Below, one piece after another: positions 12,922 through 53,678 of a stretch of 60,468 nucleotides of DNA (within the stretch, counting starts at the first letter, position 1; each line of letters begins with the position of its first letter). Location of the stretch: positions 1 through 60,468 of IMG/VR virus record IMGVR_UViG_3300046786_000249, one strand, 5' to 3'. The DNA is from a virus (lineage: Duplodnaviria; Caudoviricetes). A program made the position numbers and the translations under genes. A model generated the notes under the pieces. That model saw only the letters and a program-made list of their open reading frames with translations. It did not search any database and was not told the origin of the DNA.

Positions 12922-12934
12922 TATGGAGGTAGGT

Positions 12935-13993
12935 ATGTCCATTTATCGTCGCGGGAATGTCTGGTGGTACACCTTCATGGTGAAGGGCAAGGTCCACCGG
13001 GGTTCGTGCAAGACCGAAGACGAGGTGCAGGCCCGTGAGTTTCACGACCGCGCTCGGGCTGATGCCTGGCGTGGCCGGATTCTCAAGGACGCTCAGAAGC
13101 ACTCCGTCAAGGAGGCGGTCGATCGGTTCCTGAAAGAGCGTGAGTACAAGCGCTCGTTCAGTGACGATCAGCGGTACGCCGCCTGGTGGCTCGAGGAGTT
13201 CAAGACCACCCAGGTTACTTTGCTCGAGGACGTGACGCCTGACGTGGTTGCGGAGATCAGGGACGAGGCGCTGACGCGAAAGACGGCGCGCGGAACCCTG
13301 ACGGCTAAGGCCACGATGAACCGGCGCTTGGCGTTTCTGCGCTCGGTCATGTACACGGCGCACAAGGAATGGATGTGGCTCGAGCAGTGCCCGAAGATCA
13401 AGCTGTTGGCGGGCGAGGTCGAGCGACGTCGGTTCCTGACCCCGGAGGAAGTGATTCGGTTGGTTGAGGCGTTGCCTGAGCCTTACGGAGACATGGCGTT
13501 GTTTGCCGTGTCGACGGGGCTGCGTCAGGGGAACGTTCTGAAGCTCGAGTGGGGGTGGGTGAACATGCAGCGTCGGTCTGCCACCTTCCCGCATGAGGTG
13601 ATGAAGAACGGTTTGCCGTTCTCCTGCGCGCTCAACGAGACGGCGGTGACGGTTTTGCGGCGTTACCTGGGTAAGGACGAGGAGCGAGTCTTCGTGACGC
13701 CCGAGGGATTGCCGGTGAGCTACATCCCGTCACACGTTTGGGCGGCGGCACTCAAGAAGGCAGGGCTTGTCGATGTGCGCTGGCACGATCTGCGGCACAC
13801 CTGGGCGAGCCTCTTGAGGCAGGCGGGGGTGGAGCTCTCTGAGCTTCAGGAGATGGGTGGTTGGGAGTCCGCGATCATGGTGCAGCGGTACGCGCACCTG
13901 AATGTGGAACACCTGGTCACTCACGCCAACAAGATGGATGGCTTGTTGACCCCGAAGGCGGCTACTGCACAGAATTTGCACATCGCCGCTTAG
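12935..13993 (+). CDS. int: Tyrosine integrase
   Basis: STGLR, MKNG, WHDLRHT, MGGW and QRYAH catalytic motifs; N-terminal arm-binding-like YRRGNVWWY; adjacent to the tRNA-derived att core. Confidence 0.95.
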   Translation: MSIYRRGNVWWYTFMVKGKVHRGSCKTEDEVQAREFHDRARADAWRGRILKDAQKHSVKEAVDRFLKEREYKRSFSDDQRYAAWWLEEFKTTQVTLLEDVTPDVVAEIRDEALTRKTARGTLTAKATMNRRLAFLRSVMYTAHKEWMWLEQCPKIKLLAGEVERRRFLTPEEVIRLVEALPEPYGDMALFAVSTGLRQGNVLKLEWGWVNMQRRSATFPHEVMKNGLPFSCALNETAVTVLRRYLGKDEERVFVTPEGLPVSYIPSHVWAAALKKAGLVDVRWHDLRHTWASLLRQAGVELSELQEMGGWESAIMVQRYAHLNVEHLVTHANKMDGLLTPKAATAQNLHIAA

Positions 13994-14201: not shown

Positions 14202-17200
14202 TCAATCCCCGGCCAGGATCTCCTTCTTCATTTCCGGGTTGCTTGCCATCAGCATGCGAACCGAGAGCTGAATGATCTCTTTCTCCTTGGCTCGGGCCAG
14301 GTTGTACATCTGGACCTTCTCGCCGTACGTCATGTCCTTGCGTTGCTCGAGCAGGTTGCGAGCAGCGCGCAGATCGTCAATCTGGTTGTTCGCCGCGTTG
14401 ACGATCCCGACTGCCTGGCCCAGGTTCGGGTGCTCCTTCAGGATCTTCTCGCGGTTCTGCTCGTTGAACTTGAAGTCATCGAACTTGGTCTTGACGTAGC
14501 CCTCGGCACGGCGGAAGGCGCCGAAGTCCCAGCTTTCAGGAACCTTGGCTGTCAGGCGGTCAACCAGCGGGATCGCTGCCGACTTGGTGTCGTAGCCCAA
14601 CGCACTCTTTGTGGCCCAGGATGCAGCCTTGTAGAGCTCCGCGCCGACGCCTGGCACATAGGACCCGATCAGGTAGTCCACGATCCCAGGGTTCACGTCG
14701 ATCAGGCCGCTGTTGACCCGGTCGCCACCGGTGAGCTCGTTCAGGAACTTGAAGGTGCCCGACGAGATCGGAGAAGCCGAGTCGAAAGCCAGCGCAGAGT
14801 TGGATCGCTCGCCAGATCCGAACAGTGACGGGGTCTTCACGATCGGTGCGCCGAAGCGGTTCTCGTTGAATCCGATCTCAACGATCGGCAACAGGGCAGT
14901 CGGCGAGATTGCCTTGAAGAACGCGCCGGTCTTGGACTGAGAATCCAAGCCAGCCGATCCGATGGGGGAGAACGACTCAAACGCTGCCTGGGCGATGCGC
15001 TTGGCGGTCGTGCCTGCCGACATGGTGCCAGCCCACATCGTGTCTGCCGTGAACGTGCCTGCTGCGAAGAAGGCGTTCCAGCCGTACGGGATGGGGATCG
15101 CGGTCAAGGGCATGTCCGGCCACAGGACCAGGCTGGTTGCCCGCTTGAACACCGGGATCTTGTCCAGCTTGTTGATGCCGTCGTCGTCCTCACCGCCCAG
15201 AGCTCGAGCCAGGATGTTCGCCATGAAGCCGACCACGAACATGCCGCTGGCCAGCTTGGCCACGGTCTTTGGGTTGTCTACCGCCAGCTTGATCATCTTG
15301 GCGGAACCCTGGACTGCGGGGTTGAAGAACAGGAACCACTGACGCAGCCACTTGGAGGCGCCGCGCATGTTGAAGTTGACCGTGATCTCGCCAGCGAAGG
15401 TCGCAGCTTCCTGGGCGGAGAAGCCAGCCTCACGCATCACGCGGTAGGCGGCGATACGCGGAGCCATTTCCATCGGGATGTTGATGCTCTCAACGATCTC
15501 GACCATCTTACCCACGCCCTTGACGAAGGCATTTGGATCCTTCGGGTCGAGCATCTTCTCGAGCTCTTCGATCTTCTGATCCAGGCCGCGCAGGTTCAGG
15601 AAGCTGGTTGCGCCACCAGCACGACGCATCTCCTGATACCAGCCGATCATGGTCGGGTCCGCGCCCTGGCCGCGCTTCCCGTCAGTGGCGACGTGGAACG
15701 CTGCGTTGATGGCAGAGGGCAGGTACTTGACCATCTGGCGAGCCATCTCCTTGCTCACCCGCTTGTCGGCCACTGCGTTGAAGTACAGGGACTGCGTGTC
15801 ACGCGTGAAGTTGATGGCCGTCCAGGCAGGGTTCCAGGTCGTCAGCATCTGACCGATCACCTGGTTGAACTTGCCCATCACTTCGAGCGGCCATGGGCCG
15901 AGCTCGGGAGGCGCGATCGAGCCATGGATGGCGTCAGCGAAGGTGCCCTTGCCGGTCTGCTTGAACTGGATTGCGGTGGGGCGACCGTCAACGTGGACGA
16001 TCATCACGTCCTTGCGACCCAGGTAGTTGCTGTCCAGCTCCTCGACAACCTGTTGAGTGTCGGGATCGAAGCGGCGGTTGTACTGGATCCGGTTGATGAC
16101 CGCGAAGTCCGGGTCGTAGTTGTATTCGAGCATGGCCAGCAGCTTCTGCTTCACCATGTTCTTGTTGGCTGTGACGAGCGCTCGCTCAAACGACACGATG
16201 GTGCGAGCAACGATGTCCTCGGCAACCGACTCGCGACCGAGAGCTCGCTTGTCCTTCTTGCTGTTGAACTTGGAGCCGACGCCGCCGATGCCAGAGTCAT
16301 CGAAGCGGTTGTCAGCGTCAGGCAAGCCGCTCAGCGTGACGTAGTGCTTGTAGTTTGCGCGGGCGTTGCCTTCGGCCTTGTTCATCATGCCGGACTCGTA
16401 CGTGCGCTTGAGCTTGTAGGCCGACATGTCAGCCAGGATGATGCTCATCTCGTTGAGCTCGCGAGCGTACGGCTGGGACGAGATCGCCGACAGGATGCGC
16501 ACGGCATCCTTGGTGAACATGCCAGAGCCACCGTCGGGCATCTTCGGGTTGATCTTGGCGATCTGCTTGTTGCGCTCCTCGGCGTGCATGGCCGTGAGGT
16601 AGGCGTCCACGATGTTGACGTCAGGGCCAATGCGATCAACCACATCCTGGGGCAGGCCCAGGCTCGAGATCGTGCCGCTGGCGCCTTTCTCAAAGGCTTC
16701 CTTCTTCAGGGCCAGGAGCGGCTTCTCGAATTGCTTGCGGGCCTCGGCCAGCTCTTCTCCGGTGCGACGCTCGTAGTTGCCTTCCAGGTCTGGCACCAGG
16801 TCCATGGCGGCAGAGATGCGACCCTTGGCGCGCAGGCCTGCAACCGCCTCGAAGACAGGCAGAAACTCGTTCTGCATGTTGATGATCGCGGTGCGCTTGA
16901 GGTGGCGCCCCATGTTCACGATGGCGCGAGCGTTGTCCATCGACAGGGGTCGGCTGAAGTCGATCTTGCGGAGGTCTTCAGGCGCCCGGTTGTCGACGTA
17001 CTTCTGGAAGTCCGAGCCCAGCTTGAAGTCGATGTACATGCCGGAGCGAGCGCGCATCACAACCTGGCCGTGCTTGCGCATGGCGGCAATGACGTTGTTG
17101 AAGTCTCGCTCGATGGCGGTGTTCCAGCCGCCGCGGATGTTCTGGCCGGTGGCCGTGAACACAGCCCACGTCCCGGTGATCGGGTTGTAGCGGGCGTACG

Positions 17201-20200
17201 CCGTGGTCTCGCCTTTGCGCCCAGCGAAGACTTCGTAGGGCAGGCGGGCTTGGGCCAGGCGAACCGTGTCCGGAGCGCCGTGAGAGGGCAGGCCGTTCTC
17301 CGCAGCCTTGCGGGCCATCTTCAGGGTAAACCCTAGCTCTGCGTCGGTCAGCGTGGACAGGTAGTTCGCCACGTTGTTCAGGCCGATCTGGCGCATGCCA
17401 GCGATCATGCGACCGATGAAGGTCTTGACGATGCCGTCCTTGCTGCCGGTTGCAGCCATGTCGGACAGCACCTCATCGACTGCCTCGAGCATGCCCATCG
17501 GCTTCTCGGCCATGAGAGCGTCAGCCTGATCGCGAACGTTCTTGTTCAGGTTGTAGGTCTGCTCGAGGAACTGGTCGAACTTGGCACCCAGGAAAGCCCG
17601 CAGACCGTGGTGGCCGTAGGTTTCGTGGAACAGGGTGAACTCCACATCCGCCATGTCGCTGATGTGGTCCGAGAACAGGAAGACCTGGCCGTCGACGTAC
17701 AGGCCCTTGGCCCCCATGTTCTTGCCCAGGCTTTGCTCGACACGCTCGCGCAGCTCAGGCGGCAGATGGTTGGCGTTTGGCAGGACCGTGATCTGGGGAG
17801 CGCCCTTCCAGGTGGAGGTGATGCGAGCAACGTGCTCTGCGACCATGCTCGGAACCAGGGTTCCAGCGAACGGGCCACGACGGAAGCGGTACTCGCCCCC
17901 GGACAGTGAGTCAGGAACGCGGGTGCTGGAGCGGTTGGCCTCGGTTGTGGCGGCGATCTCCTGCTCCGGAGCCTGAGTGCCGTCCTGGTCGATGTCTTCC
18001 TCGACACCTTCCTCGTTCATGGCGTCGAACATGTTGTCAAAGCCACCGTCCATTTCGACCTCGACGCCGGAGGTCAACAGGTCGTCAACGGATTCGTCGG
18101 CGATGTCGCCAGCAGCCTCGGGCCCAGTGCGGCGCTCTTGCTCGGCACGTTGCTCGAGCGTTGTGCCAAAGCCAGTCTCGCCACGGCGCAATGCAACCGG
18201 GGCGTCGCTGCCACTGTCGAAGACGCCACCCATGCGCTTGCGACCAAGCGAGTCGACGTACGGGATCTCGGCCGACTTCTGGGCCCGCATCTCGAGGTCA
18301 TCGATGTAGGCCGCGGCCATCTCGTCTGCCTCGTCGGCGGTCAGCACCTCTCCCGTGTCAGGATCGACGTTGCCGGTCAGGATCGAGTTCAGGCGAGCGA
18401 TCGAGTCCATGATCGCCGGGATCTCGTTGAGCTCGGCGTTGGCCAGACGGACGTACTCTTGCTCGTAGCGCGATGCCTCGTTGCCGGGGATCTCGACGAT
18501 TTCAGTCTGGCTGGCGCGGGTCCACTCCAGGCCAGCGGTGCGGGTCTCGGAGCTGCGATAGAGCTTCTCGCCGTAGCGAGCGGCCATCATGTCCACGTAC
18601 GCCGTTGCGCGGGCCAGTCCGTTCATGGCCAGCTCGTTCAAGAGATCGGCGCTGTACCGGGTGGCCATCGTCAGTTGCTTGCCGTCGGCCATGGTGACCA
18701 CGACCGCTTGAGTGCCGCGGTTCTCCGGCATGGTTTCCTGGCCAGGACGCAGCGAGCTCTCGACAGAGGCGATCTGCATGAAGTCCACGCCGTTGTCAGC
18801 AGCCAGGCGCTGGAGCTGGCGGTAGGCGCCAATCACCATCCCGGCCACATCGGGCTCGGTGCCTTGTTGGATCTCGCGGAACTCAACGCGGCGGTCCGGG
18901 GTGCTGGTCAGACGGGCGTCTTGCTTCGTCCCGTCAGGCATGGCCATGTTTCGCAGTGCGGCGAACGCCTTGGACTTACCCATGACCTCTGCTTCACGCG
19001 CAATCTGGGCCTTCTTCTGCTCAACCCAGGCATCGAACGAGGCCTTGTCTTCGGCGATGGCGCCAAAGATCTGAGCCCGCAAATCGGGACGACGGCGAAG
19101 GGCGTAGGCCACGTCCTGGAACCATGCCTCACGGACGTTGCCCAGGACCCGGTTCAGGTCAGCACGTTGACCCAGCTCATCCAGCGTGTAGCGGTTGAAG
19201 AGCAGGTTCGGGAAAGCGTCCTCAGCCGAGGCCGCATCGCGCATGTCCTCGGTGACCTTGCGACGGGTCATCAGAGGCTTCATGGCCTCGATCAGGTCGT
19301 CGTGGTACTTGAGCTCTTCCTGCGTGAACTTGTCGCGCAGACTGTTGTCGATCTCCAGCGTACGACGCATGCTGGTCATCCACTCCATGCGAGCTGCGGT
19401 GGAGTGCTGGTTCTCCTCGAGGTACTGGTCCAGTCGCGAGCGCATGGCGATCTGGCCAGACACATCCATCACGCTGCGCGGAACGGACATGTTGTAGGCG
19501 CGGAAGCCGTTGACCACGTCCATGTAGCGGAAGTCGCCGTCGCGCAGGCCGCGCTGAATCAGGTCTTCCAGGCCGCGGGTGTTGGTCAGCTTGGAGGTCG
19601 ACACCTCGCGCTTGAGCTTCTTGCTGAAGAAGCGGGTCTGCATCGTGTGATCGGCGATCAGTCCCATCACCACACGGGCGCCGTCGAACATGTCGTCCTG
19701 GCTCGGGTCCAGGCCCATCTGCACGTCTTCTTCGGTCTGGCTCACCTCGGGTGCGGCCTCGAGACGGACGCCGCCAGGGATGACCAAAGTCTTGAAGTAC
19801 GGGTTGGCAACGGCCAGAGCCTTCTCGCGGGTCAAACCGCCCAGCGTGGCCCTGTCCACCTCCGAGAAGATGCGATCAAACGTGCGAGCGATCGACAGCT
19901 TGTAGACCTTTGCCTTGCCAGCGATCGACTTCTGGCGCGCAGTGGTGAGCTCTTCCTTCAGGCTTCGCAGAGTGTCCAGAAGCTCAGTCTTGGTGGTGGG
20001 CTTGTCAGGGCGGAAACCCTCGGACAGGCGTGCGTACGTGCTTTCGTCGTACGTGCCCCACAGACCAGCGTTCTGGTCGCTGTCGTCGCGCACACGGAAG
20101 GTGACGATCTTGCCGTCTTCCTCGGTCGTGATCTCGCCCAGCGCCTTGATCTTGGCCTCGACCTCGGCGATCTGCCCTTGCAGCAAAAGCACCGTGTCGT

Positions 20201-23200
20201 TCATGAACTGCATCTGCGCCGACCCGCGGACGATCTGCTCGATCTTCTCGCGCAACTTAAGCTGGCCAGGCGTGAGATCTTCAAACGGGATGAATCGGCC
20301 AAGTCCAAGCGACGCCTGGTCGCCCTTGCGCAGCTCAAACTGTTCGCCCAGACCCAGGTTGGCCGGGTTCGGAACCATGTTCTCGTCGTTCTCTTCGGGG
20401 GCCTTCTCAGTCCTCGTCTTGACGCGACGGGCGCTGGTGCCAGCCTGGTCGATGTCCTCGGATTCGGTGGGCGCAACATCGCGCTGCGGGGTGGGCGCAG
20501 TCTTCTGAGCTTCGACGCGCTCCAGGTCGCGGCGAGGAGCGGTGGCCTCCTTGGCCATCTTCTGGAGTTCGGTGAACGACCCGAAGCCTTGGGCGTACAG
20601 GTCGGCGTCCTTGAACATCTTGGCCGCCTGGGGCACTTTTCCTTCGCGCAGCAGGGTCAGCACCTTGTCCAGCTTTTCGGAGGCCTCCTTGCCCGAAATA
20701 GCCTTCTCCTTGGGCTTTGCAGCAGGCTTCTTCTCCGACCCGGAGAACTCGTCCATGTCGGAGACTTGTACGGGTTTACCCTCATCGGGTTTACCCTGTA
20801 AGGGTTTACCCTGCTTGATCGGCCCGGTCGTGTCGGCAACGAAGGACGCCACCATGTCGCGGACCTTCTCGTACTCAGCGAGCTCCTTGCCGATCTGCAT
20901 GCGGTTGGAGTCGAGGTTGGTACGGAAGCGGTCAATGATCGAGTCGATCACATCGAGCACTCGCTCGAGCAGGCTGGGGTTCTTCTCGCCCACCTGACGC
21001 CAGAACTGGCGGTCAGTGAACATCTGTCCCATGACGTCGGCAGCGATCTCGCTGTCGGTCTTCTCGGCCTGGCCCTTGTTCTCGTAGAACTTCGCGTAGG
21101 CCTCCCGAGCGTTCTGGCTCAGGTACTGCTTTACCTCCTGGGCAAGTTGCGCCGCCTGGACGGGGAATCGTTGCTCGAGGATGTGGAAGACCTCATGGCC
21201 GAACACGAACAGACCGGCCTGATTGGCGCGGGTCATGTTGATGGCGATCATGGCCTTGCCGTCTTGACGCGACAGAGCCATGCCCGCTTTGGAGCGGATG
21301 CTGCCGTTGTTGCCGGTGTAGTTGTAGGCAACGACCTGGACACCAAATGCCTTGGCCAGCTTGTTGAAGTTGGCGGGAACCTTGGCCAGCTTGAAGTTCT
21401 CGACCGGCTCGTTCTCGGTCGTGGCAAAGCGTTCCTGGATCAGCGCCAGCTCGGCCATCTTCCCGGTGGGCGCGGGCTGAGCAGGAGTCTCAACGACCGG
21501 CGCGGTCTGCGCAGGAGCCTCATCAACGGGCGCAGTCTGGGTAGCAGTCTCAACGACAGGCGCGGGCTGGACCGTGGACGCAGCCAGGTCAGTACCCTTG
21601 GGCAGCAGCTCGAGCATCAGGCTACCGATGCGGCCAGTGCGGATCGGGGTCACGCCCTCGAGGTCCGGCAGTGAACGAAGTCCCACGCGCAGGATGCCGT
21701 TCTCACCCATGTCGAACGCAACCGAGGTGTCGGTCACCTCGAGCACGGGCATCTTGTCCTTTGGCATCAGGATCGACAGGCGATCCGAGAGCTCCTCAAA
21801 GCTGGTTCCCTGGTCTGCCTGGATGATCTGATCGGCAATCGGAACCTGCTGGCCATCGTCGTCGCGGACATCGCGCATCGACTCCATCAGCGGATTGAGC
21901 GGCTTCTGGATGTTGGCCGGGGGCATCCGGTTCACGAAGTCAGGCAGAGAGTTCTTCAGAACCTCGCTGAACTCGGGGTACTCCTGCATTTGCAGGCGCA
22001 CGTTGCCCAGCAGCTCAGGGTTGTTCAAGGCGTCCTGGAACTTCTCCTGGATTTCAGCGCGGTCAACAGCCCTTGTGATCAGCTCGCGCTCCTCGACGGA
22101 GCCGGTGTCCTGGTACATGACCGCAGCCACGGCCGGTGACATGTTGAAGGTCTCGTAGACCTCGTTGAATCCCAGCTTGGAAGGCAGGTTCGCCGTGTTG
22201 GGTAGGCCAGCATCGGCGTCAGCGGCCGGGCCACCGGTATCGACAGGCTGACCAGTCGCGCCGGGTTGCTCAGCGGGCTTGTCGTCGACCTTCTTGTCGC
22301 CAGGCTTCTGCTCGGGGGTGTAGTTGAACTGCTTGAGGACGCCGCCAGTCAAACCGCCAACGAGCGCTTCCTCGGACACGCCCTTGCCGGTGGGCTGGTA
22401 GCCCATGACGTTGGTCAGAACCTTCTGACCGCCTTCTTGCACACCCTCAAAGAGGATGGTCTTGAACGTCTGGGCGGCACGGCCACCAGCGTCTCCGAAC
22501 AGACCCAGCTTGTTCGTGATGAAAGACAGGGGGAGGTTGTAAGCCGCCGCTTTGTAGCCTTGACGCTCAGCCACGGCTTCGTTGCCGGTCTCCTTGAGCG
22601 CGCCCTCATAGGCCTCCTGGGCGATGGAGGGAGCCTCCATAGCCGCACCAGCCGCAGATCCGGCTAAGCCAGCAATCACACGGGAGCCGGTCGCAACGCC
22701 AGCGGCAACGCCAGTGCCAACGCCGCCCACCATCATTGGCAAGGCAGAGCCGATGCCGCCAACCACCTTCTGAAGAAGGTCTTGTTCTTGAGGGGTCAGC
22801 GCCGCCCCATCAATCTGGGCTTTCTGGCCGAGCTCCTCCAGGCCCTTGATGCCGAACTGGCGACCAAGGTATTCAGCGGTCGACCCAATGAAGTTTGCCG
22901 CGCCACCGGCGGCAGAGTCGAACGCACGCATGGCGTAGTTGCGCTCCTGGTCGGTTCCGAGCTCTTTGCGTCGGGCGGCGATCGCGGCCTGGCGGGCGGC
23001 TTCTTCTTCGGCTACTCGAGCGCGGCCAGCCTGGTTGACCTCGGAGGGATTCGGGGTGTTCGTGCCAGCAACGCGAGTGATCGTGTTGTCGATCTTGTCA
23101 AAGGTGCTCTGGTTTGCAGGGGCCTCAGATTGAGACGGCTTGTCGTAGCCGTTCATTGCCCTGTAACGAGCAGCCACGACGTCTTGAGACGCCTCCTGCT

Positions 23201-23354
23201 TGTCCTTGTAGAACAGCGAGTCGTCATCCAGATTGATCTTGGGCGCGGGAGCCGACGCAGCAGATTGAGGAGCGATGCCCATGCGCCGCCCATTTCCTGA
23301 AGACGGGGTTGCAAATAGGGAGTCGTCATCCAGGTCGATGAGGGGCTTTGCCAT
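14202..23354 (-). CDS. Giant virion ejection / polyvalent protein (two zincin-like motifs, LPD38-like C-terminus)
   Basis: 3050 aa, last gene of the late operon; FGHEVFH and LFHETYGHHGL motifs; C-terminal ITVNFNMRG...FFNPAVQG...IPIPYGW...NENRFGAPI. Confidence 0.85.
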   Translation of the reverse strand: MAKPLIDLDDDSLFATPSSGNGRRMGIAPQSAASAPAPKINLDDDSLFYKDKQEASQDVVAARYRAMNGYDKPSQSEAPANQSTFDKIDNTITRVAGTNTPNPSEVNQAGRARVAEEEAARQAAIAARRKELGTDQERNYAMRAFDSAAGGAANFIGSTAEYLGRQFGIKGLEELGQKAQIDGAALTPQEQDLLQKVVGGIGSALPMMVGGVGTGVAAGVATGSRVIAGLAGSAAGAAMEAPSIAQEAYEGALKETGNEAVAERQGYKAAAYNLPLSFITNKLGLFGDAGGRAAQTFKTILFEGVQEGGQKVLTNVMGYQPTGKGVSEEALVGGLTGGVLKQFNYTPEQKPGDKKVDDKPAEQPGATGQPVDTGGPAADADAGLPNTANLPSKLGFNEVYETFNMSPAVAAVMYQDTGSVEERELITRAVDRAEIQEKFQDALNNPELLGNVRLQMQEYPEFSEVLKNSLPDFVNRMPPANIQKPLNPLMESMRDVRDDDGQQVPIADQIIQADQGTSFEELSDRLSILMPKDKMPVLEVTDTSVAFDMGENGILRVGLRSLPDLEGVTPIRTGRIGSLMLELLPKGTDLAASTVQPAPVVETATQTAPVDEAPAQTAPVVETPAQPAPTGKMAELALIQERFATTENEPVENFKLAKVPANFNKLAKAFGVQVVAYNYTGNNGSIRSKAGMALSRQDGKAMIAINMTRANQAGLFVFGHEVFHILEQRFPVQAAQLAQEVKQYLSQNAREAYAKFYENKGQAEKTDSEIAADVMGQMFTDRQFWRQVGEKNPSLLERVLDVIDSIIDRFRTNLDSNRMQIGKELAEYEKVRDMVASFVADTTGPIKQGKPLQGKPDEGKPVQVSDMDEFSGSEKKPAAKPKEKAISGKEASEKLDKVLTLLREGKVPQAAKMFKDADLYAQGFGSFTELQKMAKEATAPRRDLERVEAQKTAPTPQRDVAPTESEDIDQAGTSARRVKTRTEKAPEENDENMVPNPANLGLGEQFELRKGDQASLGLGRFIPFEDLTPGQLKLREKIEQIVRGSAQMQFMNDTVLLLQGQIAEVEAKIKALGEITTEEDGKIVTFRVRDDSDQNAGLWGTYDESTYARLSEGFRPDKPTTKTELLDTLRSLKEELTTARQKSIAGKAKVYKLSIARTFDRIFSEVDRATLGGLTREKALAVANPYFKTLVIPGGVRLEAAPEVSQTEEDVQMGLDPSQDDMFDGARVVMGLIADHTMQTRFFSKKLKREVSTSKLTNTRGLEDLIQRGLRDGDFRYMDVVNGFRAYNMSVPRSVMDVSGQIAMRSRLDQYLEENQHSTAARMEWMTSMRRTLEIDNSLRDKFTQEELKYHDDLIEAMKPLMTRRKVTEDMRDAASAEDAFPNLLFNRYTLDELGQRADLNRVLGNVREAWFQDVAYALRRRPDLRAQIFGAIAEDKASFDAWVEQKKAQIAREAEVMGKSKAFAALRNMAMPDGTKQDARLTSTPDRRVEFREIQQGTEPDVAGMVIGAYRQLQRLAADNGVDFMQIASVESSLRPGQETMPENRGTQAVVVTMADGKQLTMATRYSADLLNELAMNGLARATAYVDMMAARYGEKLYRSSETRTAGLEWTRASQTEIVEIPGNEASRYEQEYVRLANAELNEIPAIMDSIARLNSILTGNVDPDTGEVLTADEADEMAAAYIDDLEMRAQKSAEIPYVDSLGRKRMGGVFDSGSDAPVALRRGETGFGTTLEQRAEQERRTGPEAAGDIADESVDDLLTSGVEVEMDGGFDNMFDAMNEEGVEEDIDQDGTQAPEQEIAATTEANRSSTRVPDSLSGGEYRFRRGPFAGTLVPSMVAEHVARITSTWKGAPQITVLPNANHLPPELRERVEQSLGKNMGAKGLYVDGQVFLFSDHISDMADVEFTLFHETYGHHGLRAFLGAKFDQFLEQTYNLNKNVRDQADALMAEKPMGMLEAVDEVLSDMAATGSKDGIVKTFIGRMIAGMRQIGLNNVANYLSTLTDAELGFTLKMARKAAENGLPSHGAPDTVRLAQARLPYEVFAGRKGETTAYARYNPITGTWAVFTATGQNIRGGWNTAIERDFNNVIAAMRKHGQVVMRARSGMYIDFKLGSDFQKYVDNRAPEDLRKIDFSRPLSMDNARAIVNMGRHLKRTAIINMQNEFLPVFEAVAGLRAKGRISAAMDLVPDLEGNYERRTGEELAEARKQFEKPLLALKKEAFEKGASGTISSLGLPQDVVDRIGPDVNIVDAYLTAMHAEERNKQIAKINPKMPDGGSGMFTKDAVRILSAISSQPYARELNEMSIILADMSAYKLKRTYESGMMNKAEGNARANYKHYVTLSGLPDADNRFDDSGIGGVGSKFNSKKDKRALGRESVAEDIVARTIVSFERALVTANKNMVKQKLLAMLEYNYDPDFAVINRIQYNRRFDPDTQQVVEELDSNYLGRKDVMIVHVDGRPTAIQFKQTGKGTFADAIHGSIAPPELGPWPLEVMGKFNQVIGQMLTTWNPAWTAINFTRDTQSLYFNAVADKRVSKEMARQMVKYLPSAINAAFHVATDGKRGQGADPTMIGWYQEMRRAGGATSFLNLRGLDQKIEELEKMLDPKDPNAFVKGVGKMVEIVESINIPMEMAPRIAAYRVMREAGFSAQEAATFAGEITVNFNMRGASKWLRQWFLFFNPAVQGSAKMIKLAVDNPKTVAKLASGMFVVGFMANILARALGGEDDDGINKLDKIPVFKRATSLVLWPDMPLTAIPIPYGWNAFFAAGTFTADTMWAGTMSAGTTAKRIAQAAFESFSPIGSAGLDSQSKTGAFFKAISPTALLPIVEIGFNENRFGAPIVKTPSLFGSGERSNSALAFDSASPISSGTFKFLNELTGGDRVNSGLIDVNPGIVDYLIGSYVPGVGAELYKAASWATKSALGYDTKSAAIPLVDRLTAKVPESWDFGAFRRAEGYVKTKFDDFKFNEQNREKILKEHPNLGQAVGIVNAANNQIDDLRAARNLLEQRKDMTYGEKVQMYNLARAKEKEIIQLSVRMLMASNPEMKKEILAGD

Positions 23355-25555: not shown

Positions 25556-26164
25556 TCACTCCTGAAATACTTTGATGTACTTGTTTGCTACATGTTGGTA
25601 GCCCAAGTAATCGTTCAGGCGGTGAACGTTGTTCACCACCTTGCTGTCAGTGCGGATCTCGCGCACCCCGATGGACTGGACGCAGTCCTCCATGAACTGC
25701 CAGAACCGGAGGGCGGCAAATCCCAGCCGGTATTCCGGCAGGACGTAGAACGTGTCCTCAGTGGCATACAGAGTCCCCGTGTGGAGGCTCTTCCCGATAA
25801 AAACTCGGATGTTCCCGACCAAGCGACCCGTGTGGAAGTCGCGGCAAGTGAACTGAATGAGACCGCCCCGACGCTCACAGGCCGTCAGGTAGTCGTAATC
25901 CATGTGCAGACCGAAGCCCAGGCGGTGCTTCTCGGTCTCCTGGAAGTGCTGCTCATGCAGCGGATGAAGCTCCTCGAGCACGTCGCCCAGACGCTCGGCT
26001 CGAAACACCAGGCCCTTGTATTCCTTGGCTCCGAACTTCTCCGGGTTGTGTGATTCGTCAAGAATCTCCCGTGCCGCCAGCTCGAGCTCAGCAGCGACCT
26101 CCGGCGTCAGCACTTGGCCGAGCCGACGGGCGATCGCTGAACGGAGTTTGGCGTGGTCGAGCAT
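25556..26164 (-). CDS. GNAT-fold acetyltransferase-like virion assembly protein
   Basis: EDTFYVLPEYRLG...LGY; sits directly before the ejection genes, as is typical of podoviruses. Confidence 0.75.
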   Translation of the reverse strand: MLDHAKLRSAIARRLGQVLTPEVAAELELAAREILDESHNPEKFGAKEYKGLVFRAERLGDVLEELHPLHEQHFQETEKHRLGFGLHMDYDYLTACERRGGLIQFTCRDFHTGRLVGNIRVFIGKSLHTGTLYATEDTFYVLPEYRLGFAALRFWQFMEDCVQSIGVREIRTDSKVVNNVHRLNDYLGYQHVANKYIKVFQE

Positions 26165-26189
26165 GCAAGGATTTTAGGTGGGGGGATGC

Positions 26190-26846
26190 TTACGAGTACT
26201 CGTCCAGGAACTCAAGATTCATGAGTCCTCGCGCCAGGTCCATGCGCCTGGCTTTCTTGCAGAACAGGACGTACATGGACTGCCAGGCATTGAGCAAGTT
26301 GTCGGCCTCGTTGGTGTACCGGCGGACTGAGATCAACTGGTTGTTGGCGGCCACAGCGCTGAAGAGCGTGCCAGGCGGGATCTCGGTCAGGCTCAGGCCG
26401 TAGAACGACTGGAGCTCAGCCAAAGGCGCCAGGAAGAAGAGCTCTCGGAACTGGAGCATCTCCGGGCGGCAGGGCCTGCCGAACTCCTCGTGATAGCAAG
26501 TCTTGGCGATCACATAGGAATTGGGGCTGAGAAATGCAGGCTGAGGCTCGGTGTCGAGCTCGGTCGTGTAAAGCACCGACGTTGCGCTCTGCATGCCAAA
26601 CAGGCGGTTGCAAGCCACGGCATCAGCGCCAACCAGCTCCTTGGCGTCCTGAACCAGTAGGCAACCACGGATCACCGGCTCGGCCAGGAACTCATGCTGG
26701 TACTGGTCGGTGAACCCCTGGTAAGAATCCATCAGGGTCGCCGGGAAGACTTGGCGGACGGCTTCGTAGAGAGCGTCAGCTTCGGGTAAGCCACGATCTC
26801 GGCAGTGCGCCGCCTGCCCGTTTTGGAGGTAGAAGGAGTCGCTCAT
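26190..26846 (-). CDS. Hypothetical protein
   Basis: 218-aa coupled ORF. Confidence 0.7.
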   Translation of the reverse strand: MSDSFYLQNGQAAHCRDRGLPEADALYEAVRQVFPATLMDSYQGFTDQYQHEFLAEPVIRGCLLVQDAKELVGADAVACNRLFGMQSATSVLYTTELDTEPQPAFLSPNSYVIAKTCYHEEFGRPCRPEMLQFRELFFLAPLAELQSFYGLSLTEIPPGTLFSAVAANNQLISVRRYTNEADNLLNAWQSMYVLFCKKARRMDLARGLMNLEFLDEYS

Positions 26847-49039: not shown

Positions 49040-51055
49040 TTACTGGACCAGGTTGGCATCGACACCACCGGCGGGATTGCCAGCGGCGTCTAGGGTTTGG
49101 GGTGCGGGCATCTGCTGCTGTTGCTGTTGCTGCATTTCCATCGCTTGCTGCATCTGCATGCGCTCCTCGATGAACTCGAGCTTCTCGGTGGTGGGCACCA
49201 GCTTGTCGGTGTCCATCTGGAGGGACTCGGCCACTTCGCGCAGCAGGTAGGCGCGACCTTTGGCGCCGACGATCTGCATGTCGATCTCGTTCTGGGTTGC
49301 CTGGAGGAACTCGTTGCGACGCATCTGCAACTGCTCCTTGGCGACTAGGCCCATGGCCCCGCGAGCGACGACCTTGAAGTCGCCTTTGCAGGAGACGTCC
49401 GGGTCGTAGATCATGTTGTGGTTGTAGAGGCGCTCGACCAGGGCGGAGACCACGAAGTCCACCGACACGATCGCGCCCTTGATGCCCTTGGCCGCGTTGT
49501 CCATCAGCATCGACAGACCCGACGCCGTGCGACCAGCGCCACCAGCCTGGCCTGCGCCGTAGACGTAGTTCGGGATGCCGGTCACTTCATCGGCCTGGCG
49601 GCTGAAGTACTGGTAGACAGCCATCAGCGGCTCGGCGTTCATGTTGGGCTGGAAGAACCGGATGGCAGGCTGGCCACCACCGGTGCGGTCAGACGTCGTC
49701 TGCCACAGTTTCCAGGGGTACATCTGCGTGACGTTCTCGCCGTCAGGCAGGCGGTCGACAGTCACCTCGGCCTGAGGACCGGAGGCGATGCCCATGTTGT
49801 TCGCCAGGCTGCGAGCTGCCGCGTTGCACATGATCTGCACGTCGCGCATCTGCTCGGGCAGGGCCACCCCCCAGAAGGATCCGGGGATCGGAACCCAGCT
49901 TGCGATCTCGTAGGGGCGAGCTCCCAGCGGATCTGGGTTCAGGATGGCCTTGATGATGAAAGGACCAACCTGCCAGATGTTGACCTCGTACTCGCGGTTC
50001 CACTGGATCTTCTTGTCCTTCATGCCCCAATCCATCAAGGTTTTCCCTGATACGGAGCCCCAGTACTCGATGGCCTCGATGACCTCCTTGGTGTAGAGGC
50101 GGGCGTGGGGTTTGCCCTCGAGGCGGTCACGCTCCTGGTCGCCCATGAGCCACTGGCGGAAACCTTGTTCGCCGAATCGCTCGAGCACCTGGTCGATGTC
50201 CTTGTCGCTGTACCCAGGTGTGCCGCGCATGGTTTGCAGACCGGCGCGGGTCAGGCGGTGACGCTGGATCAGGTAGCCGTCGTTGACGTTGCTGGCGTTG
50301 GGTGAGGGGAACATGTCGTGAGGTGAAACGCGCTCGGTCTGGCGAACGTGGTCGTGGATCACGATCGGCTTGTGGCCAGGACCCCAGGTCAGGCGCTTCT
50401 CGCGGCGGATCACCGGACCCTTCAGGATCGCGGTGGGGTAGGTCACGAAGTCGTCGATGAACTCACGCAGGGCGCGATCGAAGCCGCCCGCGTTGAGCTG
50501 GTCCTCGATCTTGTTCTCCATGCGCACGGCCTTGTTCTTGGCCTCCTCGCGCATCTTGTCCACGATCGTGTCGTGAACCTGCTCCATGCGAACGCGGAAC
50601 GCCTCGGGGTGGACGGCGCCGCCAGACTGGACGAACTCCATCATTTCCATGCGGACCAGGTCTACGATGCCAGCGGAGATCTCGGGCGGGAGCTCGGGCT
50701 CCCTGGCGGGTGAGAGCTCGTAGGCACGGCGACCCGCACCCAGCATCACGTCGGTGATCCAGTTGTACGCCGCTCGAGCCTTGACGTCGGTCAGCCGCAT
50801 GTAGATGTCGGAGCCACCGGTCTGCGCGATCTCCATCGCCTTCTCGGGGTCGTAGACACCGCGGCGCTGGCGCTCGTTCTGGAGGAGCCGCTCGGTCAGC
50901 TCGGTCTTGGCGAACTTGGCTCGCTCCCAGGCCTCGCTGACGTGGCGTGAAAGGTCGGAGCCGTAGCTCTCGATCAGGTCATTCTTCTGAACGACTTGTA
51001 CGTCGATCTCGGTGGGCGCCTGAACCGCCACCATTTGTAATCCCATTGCACTCAT
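49040..51055 (-). CDS. Portal protein (podovirus type)
   Basis: ~670 aa directly after terL; ADEVTGIP...GAGRTASGLSMLM; Gln-rich barrel-like C-terminus. Confidence 0.9.
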   Translation of the reverse strand: MSAMGLQMVAVQAPTEIDVQVVQKNDLIESYGSDLSRHVSEAWERAKFAKTELTERLLQNERQRRGVYDPEKAMEIAQTGGSDIYMRLTDVKARAAYNWITDVMLGAGRRAYELSPAREPELPPEISAGIVDLVRMEMMEFVQSGGAVHPEAFRVRMEQVHDTIVDKMREEAKNKAVRMENKIEDQLNAGGFDRALREFIDDFVTYPTAILKGPVIRREKRLTWGPGHKPIVIHDHVRQTERVSPHDMFPSPNASNVNDGYLIQRHRLTRAGLQTMRGTPGYSDKDIDQVLERFGEQGFRQWLMGDQERDRLEGKPHARLYTKEVIEAIEYWGSVSGKTLMDWGMKDKKIQWNREYEVNIWQVGPFIIKAILNPDPLGARPYEIASWVPIPGSFWGVALPEQMRDVQIMCNAAARSLANNMGIASGPQAEVTVDRLPDGENVTQMYPWKLWQTTSDRTGGGQPAIRFFQPNMNAEPLMAVYQYFSRQADEVTGIPNYVYGAGQAGGAGRTASGLSMLMDNAAKGIKGAIVSVDFVVSALVERLYNHNMIYDPDVSCKGDFKVVARGAMGLVAKEQLQMRRNEFLQATQNEIDMQIVGAKGRAYLLREVAESLQMDTDKLVPTTEKLEFIEERMQMQQAMEMQQQQQQQMPAPQTLDAAGNPAGGVDANLVQ

Positions 51056-52518
51056 GTCCATCCCCTATGTGGCGCGGTCTGGACGGATCTGGCCTTCACA
51101 GGGCTCAGGCCATTTCGCACCCTCATGCACAAATACTGGAGAGCGTCGTGAGGATGGGAGAACCCATCCTTGACGGGCCGGTCTCTGTATCGCGCCTGGC
51201 CTGAGGTCTTCAGACGTTCGTAGCGGTAGCGACCATTGAATCCTTTGCGAAGGGTCGTGCAGCTCGGGTCCAGCAAGAGACCACCGGCGCCATCGATCAT
51301 TCGCGTCAGGAAGAACGCCACCGATTCTCGCCGGGGAACGAAGTCGTTCGTTGGCGCTGGGTCGGTGGGGATGCCCAGCTCGAGCAGCTCCTGCAAGCAG
51401 GTTCGCTCGTCGGTCTGCGCCCGGATCTGACCGGCGGGGTCGCCTTCAGAGAACCGGGCGAAGCCGTTGTATTTGTTGGTCAGGATCGGTCGCACCACGT
51501 CGGATGTGAACTGCCTGATACCCATGTCCTCGGAGACGATCTCCTCGAGGATGCGGAGCTGACCGGTGGGCATTTGCTGCCCGATGATGCAAGCCGGTGT
51601 CAGTCCAAAGTCCCAACCCAGGATGATCGGCAGACCACGCACCGGCTGGAGCGGCTTGTCGCTCACATGCAGGCGATCGTTCCACTCGGGGTAGACGGGC
51701 TTGCCGTCCGAGGTCGTGCCGTAGTTGCCGAGCAGGAAGACGTTGATCCACTGCTCTTGTTTGCCGCCGAGCTGGCGCATGTAGTACTCATGGCCAGAGG
51801 GCAGGTTGTCGATGTTCTCGGCGTCGGGGTTGGGCTTGTACTCGCCGTCCGCCAGGTCGAGGTACAGGCCACCTGGTTGGCGGAAGAACTTGAAGCCCTT
51901 GGGCGTTTCGGTCTCGGCGAACTGATACCACCAGTGGTCGTCGTCCGGCGGGTTGGTGTCCATGATCACGCCGGTCCAACTGGGCCCACCCTTGAGCTTG
52001 GACGGGTAGCGCCCCACACGCTGGGTACACATGTCGAAGATGCCCTTGGCGATCTCCGACGCTTCGTTGATCCAGACGCCGGTGAGTTCCAGGGAGCGCA
52101 GCTTCCCGGTGTCGAGCTCTGAGTCCAGCGCCAGGAAGATCACCTCGAGCTCGAGGGCCGTGCCGTCGCCGATGTCATCGATCCGCATGAAGCTGGTGAT
52201 CGGCGTGTCCCAGCGAATGGGTGCGACGTTCTGCGGGAACCAGGTCTGCCAGGTTTTGATCGTCGTGGACTTCAGCTCGGGGTAGGTGTTTCGGACGATG
52301 GCCCATCGCGATCGCCGGACGTTGTCGTACCAGGGGCGCTGGGCGATGGCCCGCATGACGATTTCGGAGCAGCAGGCAGACGACTTGCCAGAACCGACAG
52401 GACCCATGAGGCCCCGGACGAAGGAGGAGTCTTGGTGGAAGAGGGCGGCATTTGGACCTGGGGGGAAGTAGGTGACAACCCCTTCATCGGCGAACTCTTG
52501 AACTACGAGCTCGCTCAT
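51052..52518 (-). CDS. terL: Terminase large subunit
   Basis: GPVGSGKS, IVRNTYPEL, WINEASE, DTNPP, GWDFG and SHPHDALQY motifs. Confidence 0.95.
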   Translation of the reverse strand: MSELVVQEFADEGVVTYFPPGPNAALFHQDSSFVRGLMGPVGSGKSSACCSEIVMRAIAQRPWYDNVRRSRWAIVRNTYPELKSTTIKTWQTWFPQNVAPIRWDTPITSFMRIDDIGDGTALELEVIFLALDSELDTGKLRSLELTGVWINEASEIAKGIFDMCTQRVGRYPSKLKGGPSWTGVIMDTNPPDDDHWWYQFAETETPKGFKFFRQPGGLYLDLADGEYKPNPDAENIDNLPSGHEYYMRQLGGKQEQWINVFLLGNYGTTSDGKPVYPEWNDRLHVSDKPLQPVRGLPIILGWDFGLTPACIIGQQMPTGQLRILEEIVSEDMGIRQFTSDVVRPILTNKYNGFARFSEGDPAGQIRAQTDERTCLQELLELGIPTDPAPTNDFVPRRESVAFFLTRMIDGAGGLLLDPSCTTLRKGFNGRYRYERLKTSGQARYRDRPVKDGFSHPHDALQYLCMRVRNGLSPVKARSVQTAPHRGWT

Positions 52519-52748
52519 TTGGGAAGGTTGGCATTCAGGTTGAATGTGATGCCGCTGCCCCCGGTCTCGATCTTGACGTCAGACAGGCTGGGGAGGGACT
52601 TGTCCAGCAGGATCTTGATCGCCTGAACCTGCTGCTGGGTAAGGGTGACCTTACCTTCAGCGCAGTGGGTCAGCCGGTTGATGAGCTGGCTGGCCTGGAT
52701 CTTGGCGCGTACTTCTTCTTGATGGTTCTTACGTAGACGTGCTGCCAT
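52515..52748 (-). CDS. terS: Terminase small subunit (putative)
   Basis: RAKIQASQLINRL...AIKILLDKSLP; coupled to terL. Confidence 0.7.
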   Translation of the reverse strand: MAARLRKNHQEEVRAKIQASQLINRLTHCAEGKVTLTQQQVQAIKILLDKSLPSLSDVKIETGGSGITFNLNANLPK

Positions 52749-52751
52749 GTG

Positions 52752-53165
52752 GGCCTCGCATTGTTGCTGAGGCCGATTTTGTCTGGGGATTTCTCGATTG
52801 AAGTTGGCGCGGGCTCACATGAAGCAGTGTTGCGGCTGTTGCACTCGATACATTGATTCGCCCGGCGCTAACCCGGTTCCCGGCCAACACGACTGGGGAC
52901 TGTCTGCCGACAAATGGCAGTCCCTGCAAAGAAACCGCGTTGCAGCGCGGCCAATCCCCATGCGTGTGGGCGGTGCCTTACGGGCACCAGTCGATCGGAT
53001 CATCCAGGTGGAGGTGGCCTGAGGCTGGTCCTGGACTCCGACTGCGGACGTTATTGCCCCCACCTTCCGCTGGGGTCATGAACAACCGAAAAATCCCGGC
53101 TGAACCACTGGCTTTCACCAGCGGCTCAATCCTAGTTGGGGGTTATCGGCTGGCTCAAGACCCCA
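52752..53165 (-). ncRNA. Candidate multi-domain structured RNA / late-operon leader
   Basis: Four to five contiguous paired domains; several positions pair as G-U on the minus strand but mismatch as C-A on the plus strand (see findings). Confidence 0.6.
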
Positions 53166-53213
53166 CTTCAAAGACCACCTGGCACACTTCCTGCAAATAT
53201 AGATAACCATACT

Positions 53214-53373
53214 GGTTACCATATCCACCTTTGGTAACCAGACTGGTAACCATAAGTCCTTTGGTAACCAGACCTTAGATACCCTCCGGACAATTCTGAA
53301 AGAATTACTACCGGACTTCTGGTAACCAGACCTTATTGACCAGATCCTTTGGTTACCTTACCCATTGGTTACC
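53214..53373. repeat. Array of seven GGTWACC palindromes
   Basis: Copies start at 53214, 53233, 53245, 53263, 53321, 53351 and 53367; TGGTAACCAGAC occurs three times; AT-richer context. Confidence 0.9.
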
Positions 53374-53408
53374 GTTCTTCTGTCTAACCTACTCATTACA
53401 TTCGTAGG

Positions 53409-53678
53409 TTAGACGGAGCTTGCTGCTTTGAAGGCCTCTCCAGCCGCAGCAAACGACTTCAAAAGCTGAGCCGCCAGCTTGTTGAGGTCATCCAAGCTCC
53501 CAAACTCCCGCAAATCCAGGTCTGCCTCGAAGGCATGGGTCTCTCCGTAGATCCAAACCAGCCCGTGAACCCTCACCAACCACGGCGCATAGACCAACTG
53601 GCTCGATTCCTCGACCAGAACCTCCCTCAACGGCTCGTATTGACGCAGCCAATCCTGAACTTCCTGTGCCTTGAGCAT
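53409..53678 (-). CDS. Hypothetical protein
   Basis: 89-aa ORF with GGGGTG upstream of ATG. Confidence 0.6.
   Translation of the reverse strand: MLKAQEVQDWLRQYEPLREVLVEESSQLVYAPWLVRVHGLVWIYGETHAFEADLDLREFGSLDDLNKLAAQLLKSFAAAGEAFKAASSV

Follow-up and report, generated by a model that had tools for sequence, protein, structure and literature searches.

The window analysed here, an entire IMG/VR virus record of 60,468 bp (CheckV estimate, 100%), carries at positions 52752-53165 a non-coding stretch located, on the minus strand, just ahead of the packaging genes. In the direction of these genes, and all on the minus strand, the locus includes an open reading frame (ORF) of 89 amino acids (53409-53678), a gap of 660 nt, an ORF of 77 amino acids (52515-52748), the gene encoding the large terminase (51052-52518; Pfam match to Terminase_6N), whose start is overlapped by the preceding ORF, and an ORF of 673 amino acids (49040-51061), for which portal is a guess made from size and position. 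The gap is a non-coding island of separable RNA modules, to be read on the minus strand: a rod called domain A, a core, domains C and D, and a last hairpin. The core, main subject of this work, is a conserved, strand-specific pseudoknotted RNA fold. The stretch had earlier been described from its letters as a large non-coding RNA or a cluster of small RNAs, perhaps an antiterminator RNA, a pRNA-like element or a protein sponge (the original prediction). A cluster of separable structured modules is what is found; one single RNA is not.

The phage is temperate, and encodes a tyrosine integrase (12923-13993), a primase-helicase (6248-7954) and a polyvalent protein of 3050 amino acids with an LPD38 domain (14202-23354). 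The closest relatives of its large terminase are podovirus terminases of Pelagibacter, Methylophilales and Burkholderia (45-49% identity). The 77-amino-acid ORF is a putative small terminase by position only. Its Pfam matches are all under the cut-off and PHROGs gave none, so that the name small terminase, given by the original prediction, has the position behind it and no family match. Related loci (80 viral loci) were those returned by a search with the large terminase; in the 36 that contain both the 89- and the 77-amino-acid ORF, the gap between them measures 500-1643 nt. The two ORFs have 36 and 57 tblastn matches, respectively, whereas for the seven local ORFs of 39-117 amino acids relatives yield patchy matches only, of 14-51 residues, spread over several frames and the two strands, and Pfam and PHROGs gave nothing for ORFs within the stretch. 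The claim that no convincing ORF covers the region is borne out by this difference. An iterated nhmmer profile recovered a core of ~240 nt in 37 of 45 gap sequences, the distant ones retaining the second half alone.

The same genomic slot is used in relatives by compact tRNA arrays, co-transcribed with the late operon. From one to seven tRNA genes (Pro, Tyr, Asn, Trp, Thr, Ser, Met) lie just ahead of the 77-amino-acid ORF in 22 of 45 distinct related gap sequences. The window differs in having no cloverleaf: ARAGORN found 0 tRNA or tmRNA genes in it, and the Rfam model RF00005 had no match either. A gap that hosts up to seven tRNA genes in relatives and none in the window, together with a tRNA T-arm that persists inside domain C of two relatives (L002, L003), might speak for a decayed array, the hairpins being functionless tRNA pseudogenes. 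Yet no tRNA model matches the region at E <=10; in the related gap sequences the conserved blocks of the window, i.e. core, C and D, sit upstream of intact arrays and do not replace them; and core, C and D are each conserved as a family of their own, with covariation. Decay of tRNAs is most improbable as an account of the island, and is largely refuted for core, C and D.

A pseudoknotted RNA core on the gene strand

The core motif, described by the model R1, lies at 52958-53083 of the minus strand (103.6 bits, E 1.7e-38), and is the sole R1 match in the window. It is ~115 nt long, spans domain B and the adjacent small hairpin of the original prediction, and consists of an H-type pseudoknot followed by a long hairpin, P3/P4, with a G/UGA internal loop, and by a pentaloop hairpin, P5. 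The plan of the 5' half is ACCCC - CA - GCGGA - AGGU - GGGG - A-rich loop ending AAC - UCCGC - AG, that of the 3' half UCGGA (P3) - G - P4 - apex - P4 - UGA - P3 - CCGACU - P5 (GGUGCC CGUAA GGCACC). In the window the pseudoknot reads ACCCC-A-GCGGA-AGGU-GGGG-GCAAUAACG-UCCGC-AG. Stem S1 pairs CCCC (53072-53075), which overlaps the 3' arm of the closing stem of domain A, with GGGG (53058-53061), preceded by an invariant GU. Stem S2 pairs GCGGA (53066-53070), located within the S1 loop, with UCCGC (53044-53048), preceded by the A-rich loop with its invariant AAC (53049-53057) and followed by an invariant AG. P3 (UCGGA/UCCGA) and P4 (UCCAGG/CCUGGA) occupy 52995-53041, with a pyrimidine-rich apex and an internal loop in which G (53036) faces UGA (53000-53002). 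P5 (GGUGCC CGUAA GGCACC, 52972-52988) has the loop consensus C-G-N-N-A, and is missing from a minority of family members. Conserved unpaired letters (CA, GU, AAC, AG, G/UGA) fall in loops and junctions.

The fold is supported by compensatory changes. In an alignment of 27 sequences made by MAFFT and fitted to no structure (A1), 91.4% of the cells are paired, against 73.4% in shuffled alignments (0 of 500 as high) and 31-47% with slid partners. Both sides change in 22 of 28 pairs, and RNAalifold recovers the nested helices from the same 27 sequences. In a larger alignment of 100 sequences from 100 sources, one match each at E <=1e-6 (A6), 92.3% of the cells are paired, against 64.3% in shuffled alignments and 38-42% with slid partners, and the covariation score is 0.600 versus 0.153. 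The 20 strongest mutual-information pairs of A6 all belong to the proposed structure, those of the pseudoknot included; no pairing of the pyrimidine-rich P4 apex with the purine-rich pseudoknot loop figures among the top pairs. At the level of single helices (100 sequences), S1 (columns 8-11/24-27) is 89.3% paired with both-sided changes in three of four pairs; S2 is 97.4% paired, its third pair being GC 76, CG 17, UA 6 and never unpaired; P3/P4 changes on both sides in 13 of 13 pairs with 91.2% of cells paired (as an example, pair 73/182 is GC 42, AU 30, CG 13, UA 11); P5 covaries in six of six pairs with 92.0% of cells paired. An anchored count over 81 sequences gave, for S1 pair 2, CG 67, UA 10, AU 2, GC 1, and for pair 3, CG 41, GC 28, UA 4, AU 3, GU 2 and three unpaired.

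Comparison with homologous upstream regions thus finds the core pairs to covary far above shuffles, as proposed at the outset. The pairs that are conserved, ACCC(C)/GGGG and GCGGA/UCCGC, are not those drawn previously for domain B. The interleaved pairing GGAAGGUGG/CCACCUCC is specific to the window, and is lost in relatives in the 27-sequence alignment. Among 1809 cells, G-U or U-G pairs number 194 and A-C or C-A only 28, and the gene strand is therefore the acting strand. This surplus, together with the constant orientation along the terminase strand, upholds the proposal that the minus strand is the one at work. The sequences and pairings quoted in the original prediction were all found on this strand where it had put them.

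Folding energy is a poorer guide. The stretch 52752-53165 folds better than shuffled sequence on either strand (-182.4 kcal/mol and z -4.5 on the minus strand, z -4.1 on the plus strand, with no shuffle out of 100 matching either), and, since both strands beat the shuffles alike, energy alone gives no strand choice. The expectation of better-than-shuffle folding is hence confirmed for the whole, and unevenly for the parts. Values of z on the minus and plus strands are -7.3 and -3.8 for domain A, 0.0 (100 of 200 shuffles at least equal) and +0.6 for domain B as first drawn, -3.4 and -3.2 for domain C, -0.25 and -2.2 for domain D; on the minus strand z is -3.1 for the small hairpin, P5, and -4.85 for the last hairpin. 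Domain B, energetically unremarkable, lies within the best-supported module.

With its strongly conserved letters in unpaired loops and junctions, the core might be a riboswitch-like element in which pseudoknot and P3/P4 form the aptamer, and P5 or the ribosome-binding site (RBS) the expression platform. There are two architectures, and in the one devoid of P5 the Shine-Dalgarno sequence comes directly after P3; moreover, U is enriched in the first 9 nt past P5 (175 of 531, 33%, versus 19% in the motif overall). However, no conserved alternative pairing emerges among the top mutual-information pairs, and the U-tract is inconsistent (mean, 3.0 U per 9 nt). The genes downstream share no common function, and a genome has a single copy of the element, where a regulon would have several. 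A sensor of this kind is quite improbable.

Relation to Proteo-phage-1 and spread of the core

No Rfam 15 family matches the whole window at the gathering score, and the segment 52500-53500 gave, at E <=10, two chance-level matches only (E 1.8 and E 2.6). Domains C and D have no Rfam match in the window, nor has domain C in the relatives of the window. For the core, the link to Rfam is provided by its relatives. The family in question is RF03044, Proteo-phage-1, which Rfam classes as 'Gene; sRNA', and which we take Rfam to have drawn from a 2017 survey of 224 candidate RNAs. The window fails the RF03044 gathering score of 42 bits, with no match at this score and none at E <=10 in 52500-53500. 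Three members of the R1 family of Pseudomonas type (L086, L136, L111) score 27.9-29.8 bits with RF03044, under gathering, over the pseudoknot and the hairpin upstream, and one locus, L340, is recognized by both models (RF03044, 60.3 bits at 4522-4602; R1, 36.9 bits at 4553-4677). In L340 the two families are bridged by an intermediate, and the distribution of the S2 third pair reported above denotes the same continuity. Loci of the GCCGG type are confirmed by R1 in 43 of 80 cases among the matches listed, while 3 of 20 reach the RF03044 gathering score.

The likeness concerns the entire H-type plan: S1, (C/U)A, GCNGG in the loop, NGU, S1, an A-rich loop ending in AACA, CCNGC, AG. The pseudoknot on which RF03044 is built is present in the window core, with covariation in both stems, and members of RF03044 likewise occur in phages and prophages. 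In bona fide members a hairpin resembling P3/P4 and a small hairpin are found beyond the end of the model. Differences are also evident. The RF03044 model stops at the pseudoknot, and its 5' hairpin (GCCAGG...CCUGG; positions 7-34), which directly abuts S1, has no evident counterpart in the window: the hairpin that ends at this point there is domain A, much longer, without sequence similarity to it and not conserved in relatives. S2 is GCCGG/CCGGC in RF03044 and GCGGA/UCCGC in the window, and the two best RF03044 members, L355 and L361, are missed by R1. Judged by sequence and predicted fold, the window core is a divergent member of an extended Proteo-phage-1 family, beyond the reach of the curated model. 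The core extends a known orphan family, and is not a new one. To call the stretch an undescribed system with no named family was thus too strong, the pseudoknot half of the core being related to RF03044; the Rfam check foreseen in the original prediction comes out blank for the window itself, and positive through its relatives.

The name Proteo-phage-1 is absent from the literature searched and from the main text of the 2017 survey (PMC5737381), neither of which yielded an account of its function. A literature search on conserved core strings returned unrelated primer matches only, and a 2026 preprint on non-coding elements deals with other RNAs only.

Of 72 sources of terminase-related loci, 38 contain an R1 match; each has exactly one, and all 38 matches run along the terminase strand. 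The wider family was collected by searching viral contigs for the pattern of invariant letters, followed by R1, and the counts hold among the matches listed. R1 confirms 66 matches in 65 of 79 viral loci, many of which are prophages of sequenced isolates, and, in a one-genome-per-species set, 48 matches in 46 of 80 pattern-bearing loci. The confirmed species are mostly alpha-, beta- and gammaproteobacteria, with some metagenome-assembled genomes (MAGs) of Actinomycetota, Chloroflexota, Verrucomicrobiales and Latescibacterota. BLAST gave no match in phages for the core motifs of L133 and L131, no match in E. coli genomes for the motif of L263, and, with L128, matches to its 3' flank only. One copy was found in each of five whole records, and three core matches in 603 kb of unrelated phage loci. 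Exceptions to the single copy are L156 (9817-9975 and 10154-10250), L237 and L206, in which two core matches lie a few hundred nt (L156, L237) or ~1.2 kb (L206) apart, the second copies scoring 13-22 bits.

A phage record thus has, as a rule, one member of the core family, oriented like the genes and in most cases occupying the interval from one ORF to the next. In 102 of 167 distinct instances among the matches listed, an ORF preceded by a Shine-Dalgarno-like sequence begins within 150 nt of the last helix, and 54 of these 102 ORFs begin 14-35 nt past it. On the other side, the upstream ORF ends <=120 nt away in 84 of the 167 instances, and in 27 of these 84 it ends 2-17 nt before the CA of the pseudoknot. 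Because ORFs are so close on both sides, the core has usually no room for a promoter or a terminator of its own. The neighbours are diverse. They include YqaJ, RecT, Gam, methylases, HTH proteins and a deoxyribosyltransferase; in some loci helicase, primase or exonuclease genes lie upstream, and minor head, portal or adaptor, and head-decoration genes downstream, with large terminase, DNA polymerase and helicase genes further on. The major capsid gene is directly upstream in L255 and L262; in Pseudomonas phage PMG1 the core is part of the leftward early operon, with a methyltransferase gene on one side and an exonuclease gene on the other; in L009 and L012 it lies 4-8 nt ahead of the first tRNA. 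No neighbour family dominates (maximum, 8 of ~86 loci), and no phage protein is common to all four full genomes that carry the core, the links being limited to pairwise integrase-like similarity between the window and PMG1, and between PMG1 and G004.

The lambdoid late leader is located between NinG and the lysis and terminase genes. In phage phiAH14a (NC_074659.1) the corresponding interval, from NinG/gp54 to the lysis and terminase genes, contains a bona fide Proteo-phage-1 RNA on the plus strand. A minus-strand ORF of this phage annotated as hypothetical protein, gp55 (26084-26614; L456:3263-3793), overlies the RNA, and is probably spurious.

That position invites comparison with antitermination. 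The core could be a nascent-RNA element acting on the host elongation complex, in the manner of HK022 put or by blocking Rho, and favour the read-through of terminators. It is oriented in cis, present once per genome, independent of its neighbours and of any shared phage protein, and its conservation across phyla could be accounted for by a host target that is itself conserved, RNA polymerase for example. It heads the packaging operon in the clade of the window, and in phiAH14a a Proteo-phage-1 RNA holds the lambdoid late-leader position. In the window a terminator-like hairpin (52934-52946) comes after the core, and the tail after P5 is rich in C and U and poor in G (C 196, U 175, A 109, G 51 in 59 sequences). 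The put RNA, as outlined in PMC9378689, measures ~70 nt and forms two stem-loops arranged as a V, stem I containing a triplex. The likeness of the core to put would concern the proposed mode alone, i.e. a cis-acting phage RNA within an operon that addresses a conserved host machine and needs no phage protein. The fold is different, as the core is a pseudoknot followed by hairpins and that outline of put has no pseudoknot; there is no sequence similarity, and by its structure the core does not qualify as a put RNA. In addition, many copies lie deep in operons or just past capsid genes, with the next ORF 14-35 nt on and no terminator between, and the terminator-like hairpin belongs to the variable apex of domain C and is unconserved. 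Antitermination is, on balance, rather unlikely, though a close rival of the processing role proposed below.

Companion modules and upstream DNA elements

Two parts of the island, domain A and the last hairpin, are specific to the window, as if added locally. Domain A (53071-53165, minus strand) is a 95-nt rod of -55.5 kcal/mol. The equivalent stretches of 30 related gap sequences (window excluded) are 37-194 nt long and inconsistently structured (z from -4.6 to +1.1), and the idea of a conserved rod was rejected. The rod of the original prediction is thus present and has no comparative support. Its closing stem is missing in most relatives, and in the window the 3' arm GACCCCA shares its C-run with S1, which sets the two pairings in competition. 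Similarly, the last hairpin (52752-52774, minus strand), over the GAGG ahead of the start codon of the 77-amino-acid ORF, is there as described, with a sequence that differs in relatives.

Domains C and D are further conserved modules, each of which also occurs separately elsewhere, and both appear to be undescribed. Domain C (52887-52967, minus strand) is a stalk, ACACG-CAU-GGGGAUUG ... CAGUCCCC-AGU-CGUGU, built around a variable apex. The frame is conserved in L004, L047, L028, L002, L003 and L042. Among the matches listed (78 distinct instances), one inner pair is GC 42, AU 29, GU 7 and AC 0, 72 of the 78 retain a U-G wobble, and the cargo enclosed by the frame measures 23-100 nt, with one of 220 nt. 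In some of the loci L457-L533, two or three copies with different cargo are found in tandem, and the cargo is sometimes a tRNA T-arm or a D-type module. The core is present in 3 of 77 domain-C loci, and BLAST with the domain-C region of L507 gave one match of 46 nt. The tRNA-like element of C cassettes (L002:880-990, L003, L500, L505, L496) has a canonical T-arm, GGGGGUUCGACUCCCCC, and a possible acceptor stem of 7 bp; ARAGORN made no call on it, and the sole Rfam signal is a local match of 18.1 bits to the tmRNA/tRNA clan in L002. The terminator-like hairpin with a U-rich tail mentioned above lies in the domain C apex of the minus strand, ~25 nt past the core.

Domain D (52803-52888, minus strand) combines a closing helix with a hairpin whose loop, GUUAGCG, is invariant, and contains the conserved sequence ACACUGCUUCAUGUGAGC. 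Similarity to L002 and L003 is detected by nhmmer at E ~1e-6. By an anchored count, seven to nine of nine pairs of the closing helix form in all 12 distinct instances, which include at least five different sequences, and the second pair of the hairpin is AU 6, UA 2, GC 2, CG 1, UG 1 in the same 12. RNAalifold on a MAFFT alignment gave a poor result (covariation term, +0.02), with one row (L028) misplaced. Recognized by its loop GUUAGCG and by the block ACACUGCUUYAUGUGAGC, the module is found beside a C cassette or nested in one in L463, L465, L475, L477, L480, L494, L502 and L514.

Several of these features would suit RNAs acting in trans. According to this view, the modules are small stable RNAs cut from the operon transcript as tRNAs are, which act on a conserved host factor, for example as decoy or sponge against a nuclease or a defence system of the host. 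Of the 45 related gap sequences, 22 have the core at the head of a tRNA array; the cargo of domain C is at times a T-arm, with the tmRNA/tRNA-clan signal of L002; C and D modules occur in tandem and in varied combinations, as cassettes do; and the Rfam label of RF03044 points the same way. In turn, start codons cluster tightly behind the core, which is a better fit for a role in cis, and no promoter or terminator belonging to the modules is seen. Expression data are scanty. The stretch is present in freshwater metagenome DNA runs, the habitat labels of small-share runs being left aside, and small parts of it in three metatranscriptome runs, as assembled contigs from which strand, ends and level are not readable. 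Positions 52746-52991 are without cover in all four runs, to which no meaning is attached. A 259-nt contig from an RNA library (X15) spans 52998-53256 at depth 2.1, differing by a single letter and a single gap, and further RNA-library contigs cover both flanking ORFs, all at depth 2-3. They are compatible with transcription from the iteron region described below into the core, DNA carry-over being possible. The motif is not enriched in them relative to the flanking ORFs, though assembled contigs are no measure of level. A role in trans is unlikely, and likewise a close rival of the processing role. GOLLD and ROOL, described in PMC5737381 as phage or prophage RNAs often located beside tRNA genes and possibly co-transcribed with them, are different entities: there is no Rfam match to them, and the island is made of independent modules of ~80-125 nt that are found separately, not of one large RNA.

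Upstream of the RNA island lie elements of another nature. Seven TGGTWACCA palindromes, five of them exact, occupy 53213-53374 as iterons at the DNA level. Every exact copy of the 60-kb window is confined to this segment, and matches with <=1 mismatch number 15, versus 4.8 expected. In relatives the same position is held by different, phage-specific iterons around a central GC hairpin. The iterons look like a binding array for a DNA-binding protein that co-evolves rapidly with them, involved in packaging, in an origin, or in the control of a late promoter. Immediately 5' of domain A, after a stretch rich in A and T, comes the conserved 16-17-mer UUGCAGGAAGUGUGCCA (53180-53196, minus strand), gap-free and with fixed spacing across relatives. 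Its plus-strand reading, TGGCACACTTCCTGCA, is the sole exact match to the sigma-54 -24/-12 consensus (TGGCAY-N5-YTGCW) in the window, directed away from the terminase genes, toward the iterons and the 89-amino-acid ORF. A sigma-54 regulon was considered and dropped: the genome has one exact site, it points away from the terminase, and no activator is found among nine large ORFs. Alternatively, the 16-17-mer may be the conserved 5' end of the leader RNA. On their letters, iterons and 16-mer have the look of DNA sites to which proteins bind, distinct from the RNA modules.

The cos sites of HNH-dependent phages are located between the HNH endonuclease and the large terminase genes. Among the matches listed, domain C frames often lie in this very interval, with an HNH endonuclease gene preceding them by ~74 nt in 10 loci and large terminase genes following in 9+6+5 loci. 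No neighbour family dominates (maximum, 10 of ~75 loci). The conserved elements could therefore act as DNA, in a cos or pac site, an origin, or a single-stranded structure formed in replication or packaging. A unique iteron cluster adjoins them, the terminase genes are directly downstream, and a single copy per genome suits a site; the concerted change of both halves of the domain C frame also fits a dimeric DNA-binding protein. Domain C might act in this way, through inverted half-sites near cos. The covariation of the core, in contrast, is long-range and pseudoknotted, with a G-U surplus on one strand only; it is found now in replication, now in recombination and now in head modules; and domain C occurs in two or three tandem copies with different cargo, unlike a unique cos site. 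A role as DNA is improbable.

A possible role in the processing of operon transcripts

The occurrence of the core once per genome, on the gene strand, between cistrons, and with no shared phage protein, narrows the candidate roles to antitermination, a decoy, and the processing or insulation of messages. Elsewhere among phages, the whole space from a stop codon to the next RBS is taken up by the core, and the modules are for this reason read as operon RNA; very probably they are transcribed within it, without a promoter and a terminator of their own. Since no phage protein is common to the genomes bearing the core, its partner should be a conserved host component, or none. The core itself may be, tentatively, an intercistronic element of processing and stability, in other words a natural insulator. 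In the model, a cut at the 5' edge of the core, or close to it, would be made by the RNA itself or by an RNase conserved among hosts. This would leave the cistron or tRNA array downstream with a compact, protected structure at its start, and the fate of the downstream message would be uncoupled from that of the upstream message. Positions after capsid genes, between helicase or primase and head genes, and ahead of tRNAs fit an element set at a boundary. The insulator is ranked first on account of the tight placement between stop codon and RBS, of the capsid and tRNA positions, and of the need for nothing but the RNA or a universal RNase. Taken as a whole, the module island, the core family and intercistronic processing make the best explanation of the locus, with chances that we consider evenly balanced.

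Several observations weigh on the other side. The cleavage site, processed end and RNase site of this model are hypothetical. The segment 52500-53500 has no match to an Rfam ribozyme at E <=10, and the self-cleaving classes (hammerhead, twister, twister-sister, pistol, hatchet, HDV-like) are missing at E <=5 from 14 other member loci. The core of the window adjoins neither an ORF nor a tRNA, as ~210 nt of domains C and D follow, and the tight spacing of ORFs elsewhere could reflect the compactness of phage genomes. The alignments A3 and A6 were fitted to the structure of the model, which favours pairing and G-U; the sequences share kinship, and the shuffle controls therefore overstate significance; domain B by itself does no better than shuffled sequence (z 0.0); and the evidence of expression consists of low-depth RNA contigs, in which DNA carry-over is possible.

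The HDV-like fold is a nested double pseudoknot. Theta ribozymes, which belong to this class, are presented in PMC10879173 as small pseudoknotted RNAs located beside phage tRNA genes, and proposed as processors of the arrays. Judged by the order of its strands, the core differs from them in being a simple H-type knot followed by hairpins, located 5' of arrays, with no match to an Rfam ribozyme.

A broader scenario, which we advance with little confidence, is that temperate phages of many bacterial lineages carry exchangeable cassettes of structured RNA in their operon leaders. These would comprise the once-per-genome pseudoknot superfamily, much larger and more elaborate than the Rfam model of Proteo-phage-1, and the domain C stalk, portable and double-stranded, with swappable cargo (tRNA-like, D-type), arrayed with tRNA genes near the terminase and excised from the late transcript. 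The pseudoknot RNA would represent a new class of self-cleaving or RNase-guiding RNAs, or the cassettes would be decoys against host defences that target RNA. If this were true, the cassettes would be the RNA counterpart of protein 'moron' and anti-defence gene cassettes.

As to the family, the RF03044 model is a fragment of a larger RNA, and covers a small corner of its range, which P3/P4, P5 and the S2 variants widen. The widened family extends over many phage lineages, over prophages in alpha-, beta- and gammaproteobacterial genomes, and over MAGs from a few further phyla. As to the phages, C and D modules and tRNA arrays suggest a hotspot of small-RNA cargo in the packaging-operon leader of temperate phages from fresh water.

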